A DNA stretch of 64,000 bases, from positions 160,001 to 224,000 of the forward strand of contig DAIDBH010000006.1 of assembly GCA_027310185.1 (NCBI GenBank), in the 5' to 3' direction. A model generated the notes under the pieces. It did no database searches. It had not been told where the DNA came from and saw only the letters and a list, made by a program, of their open reading frames with translations. This stretch comes from Thermoplasmatales archaeon. Lineage in GTDB: Archaea > Thermoplasmatota > Thermoplasmata > Thermoplasmatales > Thermoplasmataceae. The position numbers were made by a program, and so were the translations under genes. Of the stretch, positions 12,394-44,284 are shown piece by piece (the stretch's first letter is position 1; the number at the start of each line of letters is the position of its first letter).

Positions 12394-14111
12394 TCATACA
12401 CCTCTGGCTTTACATATGCCTTGTATTCTTCAGGCATTTCTAGCGCTGGTTTTACCTCAAACTTCATGTTTCCCTGCTCGTCCATGTAGGTGATTATATT
12501 GGCTTTCCATGCTGGATCTTTCTTTGGGAAGTCTGATCTTGCATGTGCACCCCTGCTTTCCTTTCTCATTGAAGCGCATGTGGCTATAGCCTCACATGAG
12601 ATTAACATATTACCAAGTTCAAGGCAGCCAAGAAGTCCATGATTATATCTAACTCCTCCCCTGGTTCCAACTTCCTTGAACTCTTCCTTCAGGTCTTTTA
12701 TTATCTTGATTGCCTTCTGCAGGTGTTCTTCGTCCCTCATTATACCTACATTCTCGCTCATACATGTTGTAAGTCGATCTATGAGATCGTATGGATTCTT
12801 CCCGTCTTCCTTGAAGAAATGCATTACATAAGCCCTGACTTTCTCAACTTCTTCGTCTGGTATTTCTTCCAGTTTTGAGCTTCTTGCGTAATTCACAGCT
12901 GCGTCTCCAGCCCTCTTTCCAAAGACCAGGATATCTGCGAGGGAGTTGCCTCCAAGCCTGTTTGCTCCGTGAAGACCTGAAGCAACCTCTCCTGCTGCGA
13001 ACAGATTCTCAATATTTGTTCTTTCTGTTTCTGCATCCACTTCTATTCCACCCATCATATAGTGGACAGTTGGTGCCACTTCCATTTTCTCCTTTGTTAT
13101 ATCGACTCCCGCAAATTCAAGAAACTGTTGATACATTGCAGGTAGCTTGTGCTTGATGAAGTCTGCACCTTTAAAGGATATATCAAGGTAAACACCGCCA
13201 TGCTCTGTTCCCCTTCCTTCCATTATTTCCCTGTAATTTGCTCTGGCAACAACATCTCTTGCGTCAAGTTCCTTCTTTTGAGGAGAGTATTTCAGCATAT
13301 ATCTCTCGCCTTTGGAATTCAGTAAAATTCCTCCTTCCCCTCTTACCCCTTCTGTTACTAGAAGACCTTTCACTCCAGGTGGATAAACCATTCCAGTGGG
13401 GTGAAACTGCATCATTTCCATGTCCCTGAGTATGACTCCAGCCCTGTACGCCATACCAATACCATCACCTGTCGATTCCCAAGAATTTGATGTAACCTTA
13501 AAGACTCTTCCTGATCCTCCCGTTGCAATGACTACGGATTTTGCCTTGAATATGAAGGTTTGTCCGGTATTCATCTTTATTCCATATGCACCTATTATCT
13601 TGTTATCCTTCCTGATCAGGTCCACAATATACATTTCATCATAGAACTGAATATTTCTGTGAAGCACCTGATCTTCAAGCGTCTTTATTAGTTCCAGTCC
13701 AGTTCTGTCCCCGATGTGCGCCAGTCTTCTGTACGTATGAGCTCCAAATGCCCTTTGCATTATCCTGCCATCTGGCGTCCTGTCAAACAGTGCCCCATAT
13801 CTCTCCAGTTCCAGAACCCTGTCGGGCGCTTCCTTACCCAGGATTTCTGCCATTTTCCAGTTAGAAATGTATACTCCTTCCTCTATTATATCACCATAGT
13901 GAACCGTCCAGTTATCCTGTGGGTCCACATTTCCTAGAGCGGCGGCAATTCCTCCTTCCGCCATAACCGTATGAGCCTTGCCAAGAAGTGACTTTGTAAC
14001 CATAACAGGCTTCAGACCTGCATCGTTTACGGAAATAGCTGCCCTCATTCCTGCTCCGCCGGCACCGATAATCAGAACATCTGCCTCGACGGTTTCAACC
14101 TCATTGTTCAT
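12390..14111 (-). CDS. sdhA: Succinate dehydrogenase flavoprotein subunit
   Basis: GAGGAG, KAHTVMAEGG (covalent FAD His), QFHPTG, TEGVRGEGG, HYMMGG, HGANRLGGNSL, ESRGAHAR; GGTGA RBS upstream. Confidence 0.96.
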   Translation of the reverse strand: MNNEVETVEADVLIIGAGGAGMRAAISVNDAGLKPVMVTKSLLGKAHTVMAEGGIAAALGNVDPQDNWTVHYGDIIEEGVYISNWKMAEILGKEAPDRVLELERYGALFDRTPDGRIMQRAFGAHTYRRLAHIGDRTGLELIKTLEDQVLHRNIQFYDEMYIVDLIRKDNKIIGAYGIKMNTGQTFIFKAKSVVIATGGSGRVFKVTSNSWESTGDGIGMAYRAGVILRDMEMMQFHPTGMVYPPGVKGLLVTEGVRGEGGILLNSKGERYMLKYSPQKKELDARDVVARANYREIMEGRGTEHGGVYLDISFKGADFIKHKLPAMYQQFLEFAGVDITKEKMEVAPTVHYMMGGIEVDAETERTNIENLFAAGEVASGLHGANRLGGNSLADILVFGKRAGDAAVNYARSSKLEEIPDEEVEKVRAYVMHFFKEDGKNPYDLIDRLTTCMSENVGIMRDEEHLQKAIKIIKDLKEEFKEVGTRGGVRYNHGLLGCLELGNMLISCEAIATCASMRKESRGAHARSDFPKKDPAWKANIITYMDEQGNMKFEVKPALEMPEEYKAYVKPEVYE

Positions 14112-14634
14112 TGAATTTCACCTAAACCTGATGTGTATTATTTCATTGGTATAAATTTTTTATAATTTCTAAATACTTATATAGTACTTTTAGGTGTAAT
14201 TTTGAGTCCTTATATGACAAAAACTATTATCAGATTGTAAAGCTAATGCAATCTAAATTTCATATGCCATGTCCAGTGTCTAGAGGTTTAAATTATGCAA
14301 CCTCTTTTCTAATTTTTGGTGTCGGATATTACCATTGAATCGTATCTGTTATATTTCCATGGGATGAAATATATTTCTATTTGATGTTCTCCATCCTTCT
14401 CACCAGTCTATATGATCTCGCAGAATAAGGAACACAAGAAGCAGTATGTTATCAGGCCTGCTTCACTCCCCAAGCCAGTAGACAGTGTAAAGATTCGAAC
14501 GAAACAATAAAGTTTCTCATGATTTCATCCTTTCTTGGGAAGGGAGATTCAGGCTTGAATGCTCATATTGAATAATAGTGTAGTGATTTAGAGTCTAACA
14601 TTTTATATGGGAGTTACCAATTAAAGAATAACAG

Positions 14635-15816
14635 ATGACATTTCTACTATCAATATTCATACTCCTGCTTTTTGCAATAATTATGGGAAGTGTGTTCGAA
14701 TATTATGGCTTACCGTCAGTGATAGGTGAAATACTCGCCGGTTTCATCCTTGGAAAGGCAGTTCTTGACCTGGTTCTCCCGAGTTCCATTATAACGGGAA
14801 TATCTGAAATATCATTGTTTTTCATAGTTCTTCTAATAGGAGTTGAGTCAACAACATATACACTGGTAAAGAATGTCAAAAAAGGCATTCTCCTATCAGC
14901 AACAAGCTTCATAATTCCATTACTCATTATGCTTCTTTTCCTCAAGATTTTTTACGGAAAATTCGGGGCTTCAGATATTATACTTGCTGTCTCCATAGGA
15001 GTGCCATCCATCTCCATCATCTCGGTACTTCTAAATAAATACGATCTGATGAAATACGAGATGGGAAACTCAATTCTGGCATCTGTCATTTTCACTGACA
15101 TAATTGCATTCATTATTTTATCAGCAATTGTTGACCTTAAAAGACTGAATTATGAACTTGTGTCGATTGTCGTTTTTCTTATCCTTATTTTTCTTGCTGA
15201 TCACTATCTGCGGAAACATTCAAAATATGTCATGGCTTTCTTTGAGAAGCTCAGGTACCAGTCCAAAAGTGAAAAACTGGTATTTGGCAGCATCATCTTA
15301 TCTGGACTGATAGTTGCCTCCATTCTTGACGAGATAGGCATAACATACGTACTTGGTGCATTCTTTGCTGGCATACTCATAAGTGATGTGATAATAGGAA
15401 AGGAACTTCTCGGTATAATTACAAGAACGCTGGGCAGGCTGAATGATAGTTTCTTTATACCTCTCTTTTTCAGCATAGCCGGAATGGAAGCCATCTTTCC
15501 AACTTTCAGTTCACTGGGAGAAATGACACTCCTCATTCTCGTCACCGTTGTGATTGGAGGATTTCTGGATTATTATGCAGGTAAGAAATTTTTTTCATCC
15601 GGTTCCGGGAGGGTTTCATCCGGGATATTAGGAGGGAGAGGTGCCGTTGGTGTCATTATTGCAACCATAGCCCTGGAATCAAACATCCTGAACTCAAATC
15701 AATATTCCGCAGCAATATTTGCAACAATAATAGTATCTGTTGTGTTTTCATTCCTTCTGAGGAACCAGCAGGATAAGATACTTATGGAACAGGAAAGATT
15801 TGGAGTAAAAATCTAG
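14635..15816 (+). CDS. Cation:proton antiporter (CPA2/NapA-KefB family)
   Basis: PSVIGEILAGFILG, ILASVIFTD, LGAFFAG, FFIPLFF, RG motif; about 12 TM segments. Confidence 0.88.
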   Translation: MTFLLSIFILLLFAIIMGSVFEYYGLPSVIGEILAGFILGKAVLDLVLPSSIITGISEISLFFIVLLIGVESTTYTLVKNVKKGILLSATSFIIPLLIMLLFLKIFYGKFGASDIILAVSIGVPSISIISVLLNKYDLMKYEMGNSILASVIFTDIIAFIILSAIVDLKRLNYELVSIVVFLILIFLADHYLRKHSKYVMAFFEKLRYQSKSEKLVFGSIILSGLIVASILDEIGITYVLGAFFAGILISDVIIGKELLGIITRTLGRLNDSFFIPLFFSIAGMEAIFPTFSSLGEMTLLILVTVVIGGFLDYYAGKKFFSSGSGRVSSGILGGRGAVGVIIATIALESNILNSNQYSAAIFATIIVSVVFSFLLRNQQDKILMEQERFGVKI

Positions 15817-39853: not shown

Positions 39854-39928
39854 CTTTTTAAGGCATTATGTCATTATTGAATTTTTAGTGATCGAATCGT
39901 TTATAATGGAAGTTGTGGTTAATTTAAG

Positions 39929-40501
39929 ATGAAGCATAGGAACCCATTGAGCGAAAAGGAAAAAATGATCTCCGGGGAATTATACCGTTCGAGCGATGCC
40001 CAGCTTATTGAAGAAAGAATGAGGGCAAGAACCATACTGAATGAATTCAACATAATTCCAGTAGGTAATGCTTCCAGAAGAATTCAAATCCTTGAAGCCT
40101 TTTTTGGAAAGGTAGGAAAAAATCCCTATATTGAACCTATTTTTTACTGTGACTATGGCTACAATATTGAGATTGGAGATGAGTTTTATGCAAATTATAA
40201 CTGTGTTATACTGGATGTCTGCAGGGTGACCATAGGAAGAAATGCTCTTCTCGGACCTTCTGTCCATATATATACGGCATCTCACCCACTGGAAAGTCAA
40301 AAAAGAATAAGTGGACTGGAGCTGGGAAAACCAGTGACCATAGGTGATGACGTATGGATTGGAGGTGGTGCCATAATAAATCCGGGAATCAGTATTGGAA
40401 ACAGATCCGTAATTGCTTCTGGTTCTGTGGTTACGAGAAATGTCCCTCCAGATGTATTAGTGGGAGGAAATCCAGCAAGACTTATAAAAAAAGTTTCCTG
40501 A
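39929..40501 (+). CDS. maa: Maltose/galactoside O-acetyltransferase (hexapeptide repeat)
   Basis: SEKEKMISGELY, CDYGYNI, ILDVC, YTASHP, GKPVTIGDDVWIGG, GNPAR. Confidence 0.9.
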   Translation: MKHRNPLSEKEKMISGELYRSSDAQLIEERMRARTILNEFNIIPVGNASRRIQILEAFFGKVGKNPYIEPIFYCDYGYNIEIGDEFYANYNCVILDVCRVTIGRNALLGPSVHIYTASHPLESQKRISGLELGKPVTIGDDVWIGGGAIINPGISIGNRSVIASGSVVTRNVPPDVLVGGNPARLIKKVS

Positions 40502-40640
40502 CATCCTCTCCATGCTAAAGTATCGGAGGTTCCTGATTCATAGAGTGGCAACTCGTAGACCTCCTTTTGAGAGTTCCGCTGCTGTAGCACTTTCCACAGG
40601 CGTGAATTTGGACATGTCCTGTCCTATTTTTATTAATCCC
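40480..40640 (-). ncRNA. Predicted TnpB omegaRNA/reRNA (scaffold overlapping tnpB 3' end and right end, plus flank-derived guide); boundaries approximate
   Basis: Inferred from established TnpB biology; right-end hairpin at about 40505-40529; guide predicted to begin GAAACTTTTTTTATAAG. Confidence 0.55.
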
Positions 40641-41790
40641 ATATTCCTTATGTTTATTGCAGCATTCAGATCCCTGTCCATAGAAAGACCACACACATTG
40701 CAGTGATATATGCGATCCGACAGTTTCAAATCATGCTTGATGTTTCCGCATTTTGAGCACATCTTTGATGAAGGATCGAATCTTCCAATCTCAATGAGGA
40801 CCGCTTCCCCCCATTCGAGTTTATACGTTAGCATGGTCTTGAACAGATACAATCCCTGATCTGCTATGCTTCTTGCAAGATGTTGGTTTCTTTGCATTCC
40901 CTGTATGTTTAAATCCTCAATTACAACAGTACCGTAATGCTTGGCTATCGCTGTTGATACCTTGTGGTTGAAATCCGTTCTTGCATCCCTGATTTTCTGA
41001 TTTATCTTCTGCACTTTCACTATCTGCTTCTTCCTGTTTTTCGATCCTTTTCTTTTCCTTGATAACCTCCGCTGTTCTCTTTTTAACTTCTTTTCACTTT
41101 TCCTCAATGCATTAAGCGGTTCAACCTGCAATTTATCCGATGTGGTTAGGAATGCCTTGATTCCCATGTCTATGCCGATGATGGCATCTCCTTTAGATAA
41201 CTTCTCATCAGTTTCATGCTGGATAAATGCATAGTAGCGTTCAACATCTTTAGTTACAATAACCTGCTTTATATCGGCTGGAAATGTAGATTCGTCTCTG
41301 TACTCTATGCCTTCCATGAATTTTTTGATAATCAGCTTGTTTCCGTCTGTTTTGAATCCTGATGGTATTATGAAATACTGGTTATCCTTTTTTGATCTGA
41401 ATTTCGGATAACTGGCATTATGCTTGAAAAACGACTTGAATGCCATGTCCAGCTTTACAAGGGAGTGTTGAAGGCTCTGAGAATTGATTTCGTTCAACCA
41501 TGTTAACCCCTTCTTCAATGTCGTTAACATCTTCATGGTATCGAAACCTGATAATCCCCTCTTTTTGTCGTTCTTATGCTCAGCAAAGTACTTGTTTCTC
41601 ACTTCGAGAAAATGATTCCATACAAAGCGGCATGACCCAAAGTGCTTTTCCAGAAGAACCGTCTGTTCTACATTTGGGTATAAACGCACCTTGAGGATTT
41701 TAATCATTACTTACACAGTCACACAAATACCAATAAACTTTCACAATTCATCTCCTCCCTGAAGGTCGGAGCTTTCTTGCTCAGATTATT
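40498..41790 (-). mobile_element. IS200/IS605-family element, tnpB-only (IS1341-like), 1,293 bp
   Basis: Left end follows (T)TTAC, with AAAG at +16..+19 before hairpin CTCCGACC-TTCA-GGGAGGAG. Right end finishes TCAG, with GAAC at -35..-32 before a hairpin. Removing the element restores ...GTT TCG TAA in maa. No tnpA. Confidence 0.9.
40538..41707 (-). CDS. tnpB: RNA-guided endonuclease TnpB
   Basis: KVRLYPN..FGSCRFVWN; RuvC-I GIDMG, RuvC-II VIEDL, zinc finger CSKC..CNVC, RuvC-III DRDLNAAINI. Confidence 0.95.
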   Translation of the reverse strand: MIKILKVRLYPNVEQTVLLEKHFGSCRFVWNHFLEVRNKYFAEHKNDKKRGLSGFDTMKMLTTLKKGLTWLNEINSQSLQHSLVKLDMAFKSFFKHNASYPKFRSKKDNQYFIIPSGFKTDGNKLIIKKFMEGIEYRDESTFPADIKQVIVTKDVERYYAFIQHETDEKLSKGDAIIGIDMGIKAFLTTSDKLQVEPLNALRKSEKKLKREQRRLSRKRKGSKNRKKQIVKVQKINQKIRDARTDFNHKVSTAIAKHYGTVVIEDLNIQGMQRNQHLARSIADQGLYLFKTMLTYKLEWGEAVLIEIGRFDPSSKMCSKCGNIKHDLKLSDRIYHCNVCGLSMDRDLNAAINIRNMGLIKIGQDMSKFTPVESATAAELSKGGLRVATL

Positions 41791-41824
41791 GTAAAATTTA
41801 TAATAGGGTTGATTATATGCACCG

Positions 41825-44284
41825 GTGGGTAAGTTAACATCATACTTATTGGGACTTGGAATCGTTTTATTCTCAAGCTATTATTATCTAACTGTCTATT
41901 ACAGTCCTCTGATCCAATGGATAGGACCGTCCCTTGGGACCCCTTTTGTTATAATTTCAGGACTTTTATTGTTTCTCCTTGGGAATCCATTAAAGGAGAC
42001 TATATTGATTCCCATATTTATACTGACTGGCATTGCAATTGGAATAGGGGCAAGAAAGGGCAGAAAAGCCTTTGTATCAACCATTTCTATATATGCATCA
42101 ATACTGACAGTAATGGGTATTTCGCTGTATTTCATACTGTTCAATGAAACCAGCGCAATCAGTTCATTGTTGAAACTATCTACCTCAACCTCGGTAAGCG
42201 GTGTAACTAATTCAGGTCTCCCTCCAATTCCAAAGGGAAGCTCAATGACTGCTATTCTTTCTGAGCCATTGGTACAAAGGATACTCAGTACAATTTCCTC
42301 TTTCCTTGGAAAAGGTACTTCTAATCCACTCTCCGGTTCGTCAGGTTCATTTTCAGCTTCCTCCATAAGTACAATAGTGTCAACATACGGGCCGATTATC
42401 TTCAAAGAGTTACTTATACAGGCAATCGAAGACTTCCTGATTGTTGCCATAGTTGCTATGCTCGTTGGATATCTAATTAATAGATATGCAAAGAGAGAGA
42501 AGAAGGCTCCTGCAAAGACCGGGAATACTGAGCAGGTTAAGGAAACGAAGGAAACTGCTAAAATGGCAGCAATAGTCATACTGACACTACTTGTCATAAT
42601 TTCATTTTCTGTACCCATTATGCATTCAGGTAATCAAAGTAATAATAGAGGTGATGTGGCGCAAACTACATTAGAACAGTCATTTGCGACAGGTTTTATT
42701 ACAAATGTCCTCCATACCGATTCTAGCTTGAATTCGCGTGGTAACAGTTCGTATTCCTTCGCCGGTGGTTTTATTGGTAAAACTGGGTCACAGTATGGCG
42801 TGTATGGGAGTATGCAAGCTAACAGCAGCTCAGGAAGCGAACTTATGGCTGCAAATTCAACAATTCTGTCCGCATATTTTGTCACATACAACGTTTCTAA
42901 TCTGTTGTCTCAATTAGGTATTGATAACCTGTATCATGCTACTGACTTCAATTCAAATGAGTTAACCCAGGTTTTCAACCTGCTCCCGGAAGGAATGATT
43001 CTGTTTATCACTGATGGTTATTCAAATTCTCAGCAGTCTTCCACCTATTCATCAGCTAAAGATTTTGTGTCATCGGTAGGAGGCAGTTCACTAAATTCAG
43101 TCCTGGCATTGAATCTCAGCCTGAGCAGTCTTAATATACCGGATGTTGGGATTTATTTATTCTCATTCACTCCTGATTACAGGAATATTGAGAACAAACT
43201 GGTAGAAAATAATGGTGCATTCTATGGAAATACTCAGTCTAGCTTGATCCTTAAGAGTTCTATTCAGGACGGAAATCTAAGTTCAGTAACAGCAGATGGT
43301 CCTATTGATTCATTTGTGATGATGGGTGGAAGTATCCATTCAAGCGAAATAACTTCAGATCTGTCCAGCTTTTCAGGACTGTCTACACTTTTTAATTCTA
43401 AATCCGATTTTACCTTCTCTCTTTCTATTTTTGAACAGAATCACGTATATACGTCCTCAGGAAACAAACATACGTTTACCCTGGCCAAACTGATAAACTA
43501 TGATCACAGTCTTAACTTCTCAGGAACTCCTGAGTCTTTAATTGTAACAGGATTCCCGGTGGAAATGAATAATGTAAACAAGTATGAATTCTACAGTTAC
43601 ACTAACAACAAATCACTTGCCAGTGAAGTAGACTTCGGCAACTATGCCAAAGTGGTAAATACAACGGGCATGATTAATCCGGATGAAGTGAATTATGTTA
43701 CAAATGCAAATTTCCCGGCTAAACTGGAGGTTTCAGATAGAATATCCAACATAACTGCAAACGAACATGCTGTTTCCATAGGAGTTACGAACAGGGACAC
43801 AGATACACTCACGAACCTGTCTATAAATGAAACTGGATTTGTGGGAGAGTACGGAAATTCCATTCACATAATTTCCGGATCGACTGAAAGTTCAACTTAT
43901 GCAAAACTATCTCCAGGAAATACGCTGTATCTTAATTTTACAGTAATAACCAGGAATCCAGGATTCTATACACTTGGAAATCCAATAGTGAGCTATGAAA
44001 ACAATAACACTAAGGAGAATACAACTGGACCTTTGGTCGGTTTTTCTGTAGCTGATCCACCCGTTCAGGACGCGGTAAATAACTTACTTTATTTCTATGT
44101 TGACATGGATGCGGGCTCGCTCGTGCCACAGCTGAAGATATTATTAACACCCCTTGTTGGCTACTTCTATCTTTTCGACCTGATAGTTGTCCTCGTCGTG
44201 ATTGCGGACCTGTATTTAGAAATCAGGGCATTCAGGAGATGGAGAGCGAAGAAAAAGAATATGCCCACAGGCGGTGGAAATTAA
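41825..44284 (+). CDS. Hypothetical membrane protein: N-terminal TM bundle, large Ser-rich extracellular region, Ig-like module, C-terminal TM anchor
   Basis: Hydrophobic segments in the first ~270 aa; VTNRDTDTLTNLSINE..LSPGNTLYLNFTV..PGFYTL resembles a CARDB/DUF11-like domain; ends with TM plus RRWRAKKK. Confidence 0.7.
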   Translation: MGKLTSYLLGLGIVLFSSYYYLTVYYSPLIQWIGPSLGTPFVIISGLLLFLLGNPLKETILIPIFILTGIAIGIGARKGRKAFVSTISIYASILTVMGISLYFILFNETSAISSLLKLSTSTSVSGVTNSGLPPIPKGSSMTAILSEPLVQRILSTISSFLGKGTSNPLSGSSGSFSASSISTIVSTYGPIIFKELLIQAIEDFLIVAIVAMLVGYLINRYAKREKKAPAKTGNTEQVKETKETAKMAAIVILTLLVIISFSVPIMHSGNQSNNRGDVAQTTLEQSFATGFITNVLHTDSSLNSRGNSSYSFAGGFIGKTGSQYGVYGSMQANSSSGSELMAANSTILSAYFVTYNVSNLLSQLGIDNLYHATDFNSNELTQVFNLLPEGMILFITDGYSNSQQSSTYSSAKDFVSSVGGSSLNSVLALNLSLSSLNIPDVGIYLFSFTPDYRNIENKLVENNGAFYGNTQSSLILKSSIQDGNLSSVTADGPIDSFVMMGGSIHSSEITSDLSSFSGLSTLFNSKSDFTFSLSIFEQNHVYTSSGNKHTFTLAKLINYDHSLNFSGTPESLIVTGFPVEMNNVNKYEFYSYTNNKSLASEVDFGNYAKVVNTTGMINPDEVNYVTNANFPAKLEVSDRISNITANEHAVSIGVTNRDTDTLTNLSINETGFVGEYGNSIHIISGSTESSTYAKLSPGNTLYLNFTVITRNPGFYTLGNPIVSYENNNTKENTTGPLVGFSVADPPVQDAVNNLLYFYVDMDAGSLVPQLKILLTPLVGYFYLFDLIVVLVVIADLYLEIRAFRRWRAKKKNMPTGGGN

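Follow-up and report, generated by a model that had tools for sequence, protein, structure and literature searches.

The 3' end of a maa-like gene in a Thermoplasmatales archaeon raises the question of how a host gene can come to take its stop codon from a transposable element, and what this arrangement means for both. The gene lies in a stretch of 64,000 nucleotides (assembly GCA_027310185.1, contig DAIDBH010000006.1, positions 160,001 to 224,000), referred to here as the window, and encodes a hexapeptide acetyltransferase of 190 aa with Pfam matches to Mac and Hexapep (39929..40501, plus strand). Convergent with it is the tnpB gene of an IS200/IS605 element of 1293 bp (40498..41790, minus strand), which supplies the stop codon of maa. 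This is very probably a non-autonomous, tnpB-only element with IS608-type ends, inserted at the G+TAA that closed the maa gene and moved in trans, with its position on the stop codon a by-product.

The present end of maa reads GTT TCC TGA (40493-40501). Its last four bases form the right cleavage tetranucleotide of the element, TCAG (40498..40501, minus strand), which on the plus strand is C+TGA: the C closes the last maa codon and the TGA is the present stop. Next to the other end of the element lies TTAC (41791..41794, minus strand), the target and left cleavage tetranucleotide, which is also the predicted target-adjacent motif (TAM) of the nuclease. The plus-strand reading of this tetranucleotide is G+TAA, the base and stop codon with which maa formerly ended. 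Deletion of 40498-41790 in silico gives a maa end of GTT TCG TAA.

On the minus strand, the left guide tetranucleotide AAAG (41772..41775) occupies +16..+19. It is followed by the left subterminal imperfect palindrome (IPL, 41752..41771), the letters of which are conserved across copies and the foot of which, at +20, is 19 nt from the left cleavage point. The right end runs in the order GAAC, hairpin and then 10 nt ending in TCAG. Here the guide tetranucleotide GAAC (40529..40532) stands at -35..-32 and the hairpin is the right subterminal imperfect palindrome (IPR, 40508..40528), which covariation supports. The initial annotation of this DNA had recognised the anatomy of IS608 in these features; all four tetranucleotides can be read directly in the DNA, and the 19-nt and 10-nt distances match those in the available text of PMC3201880. 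The numbering -35..-32 that it gave for the right guide of IS608 itself is not confirmed in the available parts of PMC3201880 or PMC5934647. Folded as DNA from a single sequence, the left end is weakly better than its shuffles (z -1.78). The flanks of the element (...TTTTAC / GAAACT...) carry no common repeat and hence no target-site duplication, and there are no terminal inverted repeats. No tnpA is present among the open reading frames (ORFs) of the element within 40498-41790, and the element is therefore non-autonomous.

The ends had been given as exact to the base, and the same end bases are found in other copies, both in the genome and in its relatives. The outermost ~47 nt on the left occur again at four other genome sites (on contigs C15, C2, C18 and C13), and the outermost 35-43 nt on the right at two (C18 and C2). 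In alignment, all three right ends of the genome finish ...ATGTCAG and diverge directly afterwards. TTAC stands in front of four of the five left ends, the exception being the copy on C13 (~169611-169657), for which no right end was found nearby and which may be truncated or rearranged. When 39900-42500 was used as the query against 41 related genomes, many matches had their first base precisely at 599 of the query (window 40498) or their last a few bases past 1891 (window 41790). With the last 103 nt as the query, 74 of the 169 genomes searched within the order gave a right-end match. Among 20 left junctions of relatives, TTAC was found in 15, TTAT in three and TTAG in one, with one unclear; the base preceding TTAC was T in 10 of the 15. 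The expectation that other copies would share these termini thus holds for the ends of most copies, but not for TTAC at every left junction.

Two side observations concern the distribution of the family. A short contig of one relative (G004:C61; loci L224 and L141) carries two right ends of the family (1239 and 2297) in opposite orientation and ~1 kb apart, one of them on the stop of a DUF72 gene. A genome from a different family of the order (G031; L018, G031:C81) holds a copy that is 85% identical in DNA together with several further copies, which suggests transfer of the element between lineages.

The insertion can be compared with alleles that do not contain it. In the sister species G011 and G012, with flanks 76-83% identical, maa adjoins the downstream gene with no element between them, and homology ends exactly at window 40497 and restarts at 41792. 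In each of the two species the maa gene ends in GTTTCGTAA (AAAAAAAGTTTCGTAA), encoding K-K-V-S-stop with TCG TAA. As this is the end predicted on deleting 40498-41790, the maa protein was left unchanged by the insertion, and the silent Val-Ser-stop outcome proposed in the initial annotation is borne out. Four public DNA runs, out of 22 listed, were also compared with the locus (X3, X7, X17 and X19); going by the run labels, the source habitat is an acid mine. The contigs of X3 (mine tailings) span both filled junctions with 0 mismatches. Run X7 (mine drainage) contains a filled-allele contig (depth 57.9) beside one contig that joins 40497 to 41792 (depth 41.6), the shorter side of this joint being 30 letters long. 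Since X7 holds both empty and filled alleles, the insertion is polymorphic in nature. The predicted empty allele, GTT TCG TAA in G011 and G012 and the joint in X7, is confirmed to within one base. No contig joint across the element was seen in runs X17 and X19, which is not counted as absence. An exact 24-nt scan of metagenome contigs with the left flank returned 0 records, and a metagenome scan guided by the maa protein returned distant homologues only (best 57% identity), with no further empty or filled alleles.

The right end was also compared across copies as a folded structure. The covariation set comprised 87 right ends in 82 distinct rows, aligned to a hand-drawn hairpin, with controls in which the partner was slid by 1-3 columns. 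In the IPR hairpin 85.6% of cells were paired, against 33-47% in the slid controls, and six of its eight pairs had changes on both sides. The fourth guide base and the last cleavage base (columns 32/66) were paired in 75 of 81 cells (C:G 67, G:C 6 and U:G 2) and unpaired in six; of the other guide/cleavage pairs, G:C was present in 75/82 and A:T in 74/81. A separate parsing of the tetranucleotides gave the combinations TCAG/GAAC in 57 copies, TCAC/GAAG in five, TCAG/GAAG in three and TCAC/GAAC in one. The five TCAC/GAAG copies may be one sub-lineage, and would then represent at least one compensatory event rather than five. This covariation supports both the right-end hairpin and the pairing of GAAC with TCAG. 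The earlier description of the right end as a compensatory change is a fair one, in that a switch between TCAG/GAAC and TCAC/GAAG occurs within the family.

The tnpB gene (40538..41707, minus strand) encodes 389 aa plus a stop. Its product matches PF12323 (HTH_OrfB_IS605; 57.5 bits), PF01385 (OrfB_IS605; 89.2 bits) and PF07282 (Cas12f1-like_TNB; 69.3 bits), all over the cut-off, and aligns over residues 4-362 with the ISDra2 TnpB structures 8bf8, 8exa and 8h1j (E 3e-48). Alignment with two other homologues places the motifs GIDMG (D180), VIEDLN (E264) and DRDLNAAINI (D346), which we take to be the counterparts of the catalytic D191, E278 and D361 of ISDra2. The zinc-finger pairs CSKC and CNVC (C317/C320 and C336/C339) also lie in conserved aligned motifs. 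The reading frame is intact and, as the initial annotation held, the RuvC acidic residues and the zinc finger are kept. The same annotation called the protein compact, which does not hold: 389 aa is an ordinary size for a TnpB. Relatives with 58-84% identity are found in Thermoplasmata, Thermoplasmatales and Ferroplasma metagenome-assembled genomes. By analogy with other TnpB proteins, we infer nuclease activity, a TAM of TTAC and homing.

The tnpB ORF stops 40 nt ahead of the right end. The last ~130 nt of the element are near-invariant in six full-length copies, while the coding part just upstream varies, and one stem in this region has two compensatory pairs among the six. The region (40498..40630, minus strand) covers the right end of the element together with the last part of tnpB, and fits the scaffold of a putative guide RNA (omegaRNA). 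Going by TnpB biology, the predicted guide and target would be the right flank GAAACTTTTTTTATAAGTCT (40478..40497, minus strand), which is antisense to the last maa codons. A hit to snoU13 in Rfam, at 18 bits, was regarded as fortuitous.

A source of transposase is present elsewhere in the genome, as the supposition of movement in trans implied. Matches to PF01797 identify tnpA on C2 (143 bits) and C3 (130 bits), and two broken, decayed pieces on C7. On C2 the gene is part of an element (~13538-15102; locus L010 ~426-1990) in which a 137-aa Y1_Tnp protein overlaps a 333-aa TnpB. This TnpB has 29% identity to that of the window over 130 residues. The ends of the two elements are 92% identical over 40 nt on the left and 89% over 35 nt on the right, with the same AAAG, GAAC, TTAC and TCAG. 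Because the ends of the C2 element carry near-identical modules, mobilisation in trans by its TnpA is plausible; the ends and the nuclease/RNA cargo seem to have been exchanged as modules.

The C2 element lies 39 nt after a fragment of a phage-integrase-family gene, and an identical left end at C15:1-137 may belong to it, split by the assembly. Derivatives lacking tnpB also occur. A 231-bp copy on C18 (305109-305339) consists of a left and a right end only; its guide GAAG is mismatched to TCAG, and it may be decaying. A mini-element of ~47 nt in a relative (L236:1-51; G132:C94 from 26848) lies exactly on the stop of a DUF302 gene, and is made up of ~15 nt of left end, AAAG, one hairpin and a 10-nt right tail ending in TCAG.

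From these components the following course of events can be proposed. The element would enter single-stranded DNA on the 3' side of a TTAC complementary to the last base and stop of maa. The TCAG of its right end would then present C+TGA on the gene strand, which preserves both the Ser of the last maa codon and an in-frame stop. The Y1 transposase of the C2 tnpA+tnpB element would move the tnpA-less element. An omegaRNA made from the last ~130 nt and the flank would guide TnpB, as in ISDra2, and TnpB would cut the empty site (TTAC then GAAACTTTTTTT...), a cut that would help the element to persist.

The in-frame exchange of stop codons would need no special adaptation. It is automatic, because TTAC holds the complement of TAA and any TCAN end holds, in the same frame, that of TGA. 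By analogy, the TCAA end of IS608 itself would give the same in-frame TGA. The frequency of such landings was surveyed on right-end junctions, of which 110 were fetched: 31 came from the 41-genome search and 79 from the 169-genome search. The latter were those among the matches listed with an alignment start at query base 1-3, while later-starting matches and 25 further matches were left out. With the three copies of this genome added, 106 of the 113 were anchored, giving 103 unique flanks. CTGA opens the gene strand in 81 of these unique right ends and TGA is present there in 90. The usable set, drawn from the same listed matches, was 86 of the 103 (those with a terminal TGA and a flank of 300 nt or more), and each was searched for an opposite-strand open frame of at least 100 codons ending exactly at the TGA of the element.

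Exact overlap with a stop was found in 11 of the 86 copies, the window locus included, compared with one and one in the other two frames. The nearest end of a long ORF was at distance 0 in these 11, at 1-10 nt in four, at 11-30 nt in six, at 31-100 nt in 10, and farther away or absent in 55. In seven of the 10 new cases Pfam domains reach the C-terminus of the profile (ribonucleotide reductase small chain, MoCF_biosynth, DUF72, aminotransferase, HTH_34, DUF302 and zinc ribbon). As these domains run to the profile end, the seven are real, complete genes. Left ends were located for the overlap cases L228, L231 and L236 (the last with a 3-nt offset), and GTAA follows them. The left end of six of the 10 new cases was not found by motif or BLAST, and their far-side G+TAA is presumed. 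With the element in place the closing codon is NNC instead of NNG, a substitution that gives another residue in about five of the 11 cases. The null expectation was taken from all TTAC sites of this genome only, with ORFs of at least 100 aa standing in for genes; 117 TTAC sites lie on a G-TAA stop compared with 2574 intergenic sites (4.3%). Overlap with stops recurs, probably at about three times the rate expected from the available sites, while 75 of the 86 copies are off stops, the overlap amounting to one copy in eight.

A number of observations weigh against the explanation of a mobile element that landed precisely on the maa stop. In G011 and G012 a spacer of ~120 nt that is lacking here follows the maa stop, and the two are not exact empty sites. 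The joint in X7 skips 1294 nt rather than the predicted 1293, with the G of TTAC/GTAA replaced or missing. More than one copy of this tnpB was not found in the genome, where it is single. In the window copy an A.C mismatch interrupts the IPR, and folding as DNA does not give this hairpin as the structure of minimum energy (z +0.66). The first letters of the predicted guide are GAAAC and then a run of seven T. Oligo-T stretches tend to act as terminators for archaeal RNA polymerase, and the T7 run may therefore end the transcript early and leave a short guide at this locus. The Rfam match to RAGATH-18 (40530-40600), a family linked to the guide RNAs of IS607 TnpBs (PMC11061315), reaches 26.8 bits and is below the cut-off of 44.9. 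The excess of stop overlaps has a binomial p of 0.0013 at the crude null of 4.3%, and of 0.014 and 0.08 if the null is set at 6% and 8%, respectively.

An insertion-linked deletion was considered as the source of the ~120-nt spacer difference and rejected, as the empty contig of X7 has the short-spacer form directly. Similar A/T-rich words are found on both sides of this spacer indel (window 41791-41830 compared with L022, G011:C2 ~267741-267860).

The single copy, the mismatched IPR with no stable predicted hairpin and the T7 run in the guide region would also be explained if the element were a fixed fossil, no longer mobile and with its TnpB and omegaRNA no longer functional at this locus; the identical filled allele in the independent mine-tailings run X3 points the same way. 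This alternative is possible though doubtful. Against it stand the intact 389-codon reading frame with all catalytic motifs and the intact tnpA with matching ends in the same genome. The occurrence of empty and filled alleles together in X7 also argues against fixation, and the 85% DNA-identical copies in G031, from another family, suggest recent spread. Taken together, a polymorphic element moved in trans, the stop position being a by-product, remains the preferred explanation.

The initial annotation went further and saw in the exchange of TAA for TGA a possible safe-harbour strategy, evolved as such, with TTAC and TCAG maintained for scarless landing on G-TAA stops. The counts give this proposal part of what it needs: exact overlap at 11 of 86 copies exceeds the crude expectation, the distances spike sharply at 0 compared with the intervals of 1-10 and 11-30 nt, and TGA is retained at 90 of the 103 unique right ends. 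The larger share of the evidence points elsewhere and makes an evolved strategy improbable. Most copies are not on stops, and the last residue is changed in nearly half of those that are. The TCA of the right cleavage site and the TTAC of the left are already constrained by guide pairing (PMC3201880, PMC5934647, as far as the available text of these goes, and the covariation above). The property comes free, since the TCAA end of IS608 would do likewise. The enrichment is two- to three-fold over a rough null, and survivorship by itself would produce a spike where insertions do no harm. The best reading is that the stop position is a by-product: purifying selection keeps harmless insertions, which produces the spike, and no evolved strategy is needed. 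The by-product view is modestly supported. A broader proposal is that the G-TAA to TGA landing, built into IS608-type elements and used at about three times its availability in Thermoplasmatales, constitutes a general low-cost niche, in which TnpB guides would often point toward the 3' ends of host genes. This generalisation is speculative and rather unlikely to hold.

The domestication of TnpB as a TldR-like RNA-guided regulator of maa or its neighbours, brought to mind by a guide antisense to the maa 3' end and by known TnpB-derived repressors (PMC13622181, in its available part), is extremely improbable given the intact RuvC D/E/D and zinc finger, transposon ends identical to those of mobile relatives, a polymorphic insertion and a filled allele with no TTAC beside the guide match.

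Beyond the element, the plus strand encodes an 819-aa protein rich in Ser, Thr and Asn (41825-44284), with membrane-like segments at both ends. The start of its ORF is 31 nt past the TTAC target. A weak match to TRAP_beta (26.3 bits) was recorded, and the product may be a surface protein.

The element is an ordinary IS608-type tnpB element. The known workings of such elements and of TnpB are unchanged by it, and the exchange of stops is not a new mechanism. Its interest lies in a fully delimited TnpB element from an archaeon of an acid habitat, with a predicted TAM and guide that are directly testable. The 11 independent cases add IS605-type elements with TTAC/TCAN ends that occupy a host stop while the length of the protein stays the same. 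For annotation, they are examples of a host gene whose stop codon belongs to a transposon, and they offer a small testable idea on where such elements survive.

Among known systems, the closest protein is the TnpB of ISDra2 (8bf8, 8exa, 8h1j), with the same protein family, domain order and aligned D/E/D and CxxC..CxxC residues. In the window element the gene ends ~40 nt before the right end, so that, as in ISDra2, an RNA sharing sequence with the 3' part of the gene would be expected. The TAM of ISDra2 is TTGAT, unlike the TTAC predicted here, and the omegaRNA of the window element is predicted from conservation and the sub-threshold RAGATH-18 match.

The ends are closest to those of IS608 (ISHp608) of Helicobacter pylori. 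There the left cleavage point follows a TTAC and precedes the left hairpin foot by 19 nt, and the right cleavage site, TCAA, comes 10 nt after the right hairpin foot; the four bases 5' of each hairpin act as guides (PMC3201880, available text). These guides are AAAG and GAAT, and the pairs A+16:T-3 and A+17:T-4 have been described (PMC5934647, available text). The window element shares with IS608 insertion at TTAC, AAAG at +16..+19, the 19/10-nt spacing, guides 5' of the hairpins, and the lack of inverted repeats and of target duplication. It differs from the IS608 of these sources in its right pair (TCAG/GAAC compared with TCAA/GAAT), in having no tnpA and in its archaeal host.

Ends-only derivatives such as the 231-bp copy on C18, the ~235-bp copies at L228 and L231 and the ~47-nt copy at L236 resemble the palindrome-associated transposable elements (PATEs) of Haloquadratum, derivatives of IS605-type elements akin to miniature inverted-repeat transposable elements (MITEs), in which a 52-bp PATE is the counterpart of the single-hairpin L236 copy (PMC3119063, available part). 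The host lineage and the sequences are different from those of the Haloquadratum PATEs.

For the overlap with a gene end there is partial prior notice. In Borrelia lipoprotein genes, the left-end sequence of IS605 lies over the last 8 nt plus TAA (IS605B stem-loops), so that there also an IS605 end overlaps a gene end, while the available part of PMC2775950 describes no stop-for-stop exchange by the right end. No prior statement of such an exchange was found in the literature searched, subscription papers and supplements being outside its scope. A further parallel is provided by the IStrons (PMC4227781; bioRxiv 10.1101/2023.11.20.567912; available parts), which combine a group I intron with IS605/IS607 and in which IS605-type insertion in or at genes is likewise made harmless. 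Unlike the window element, IStrons splice from the RNA; here it is the DNA end of the element that restores the stop.

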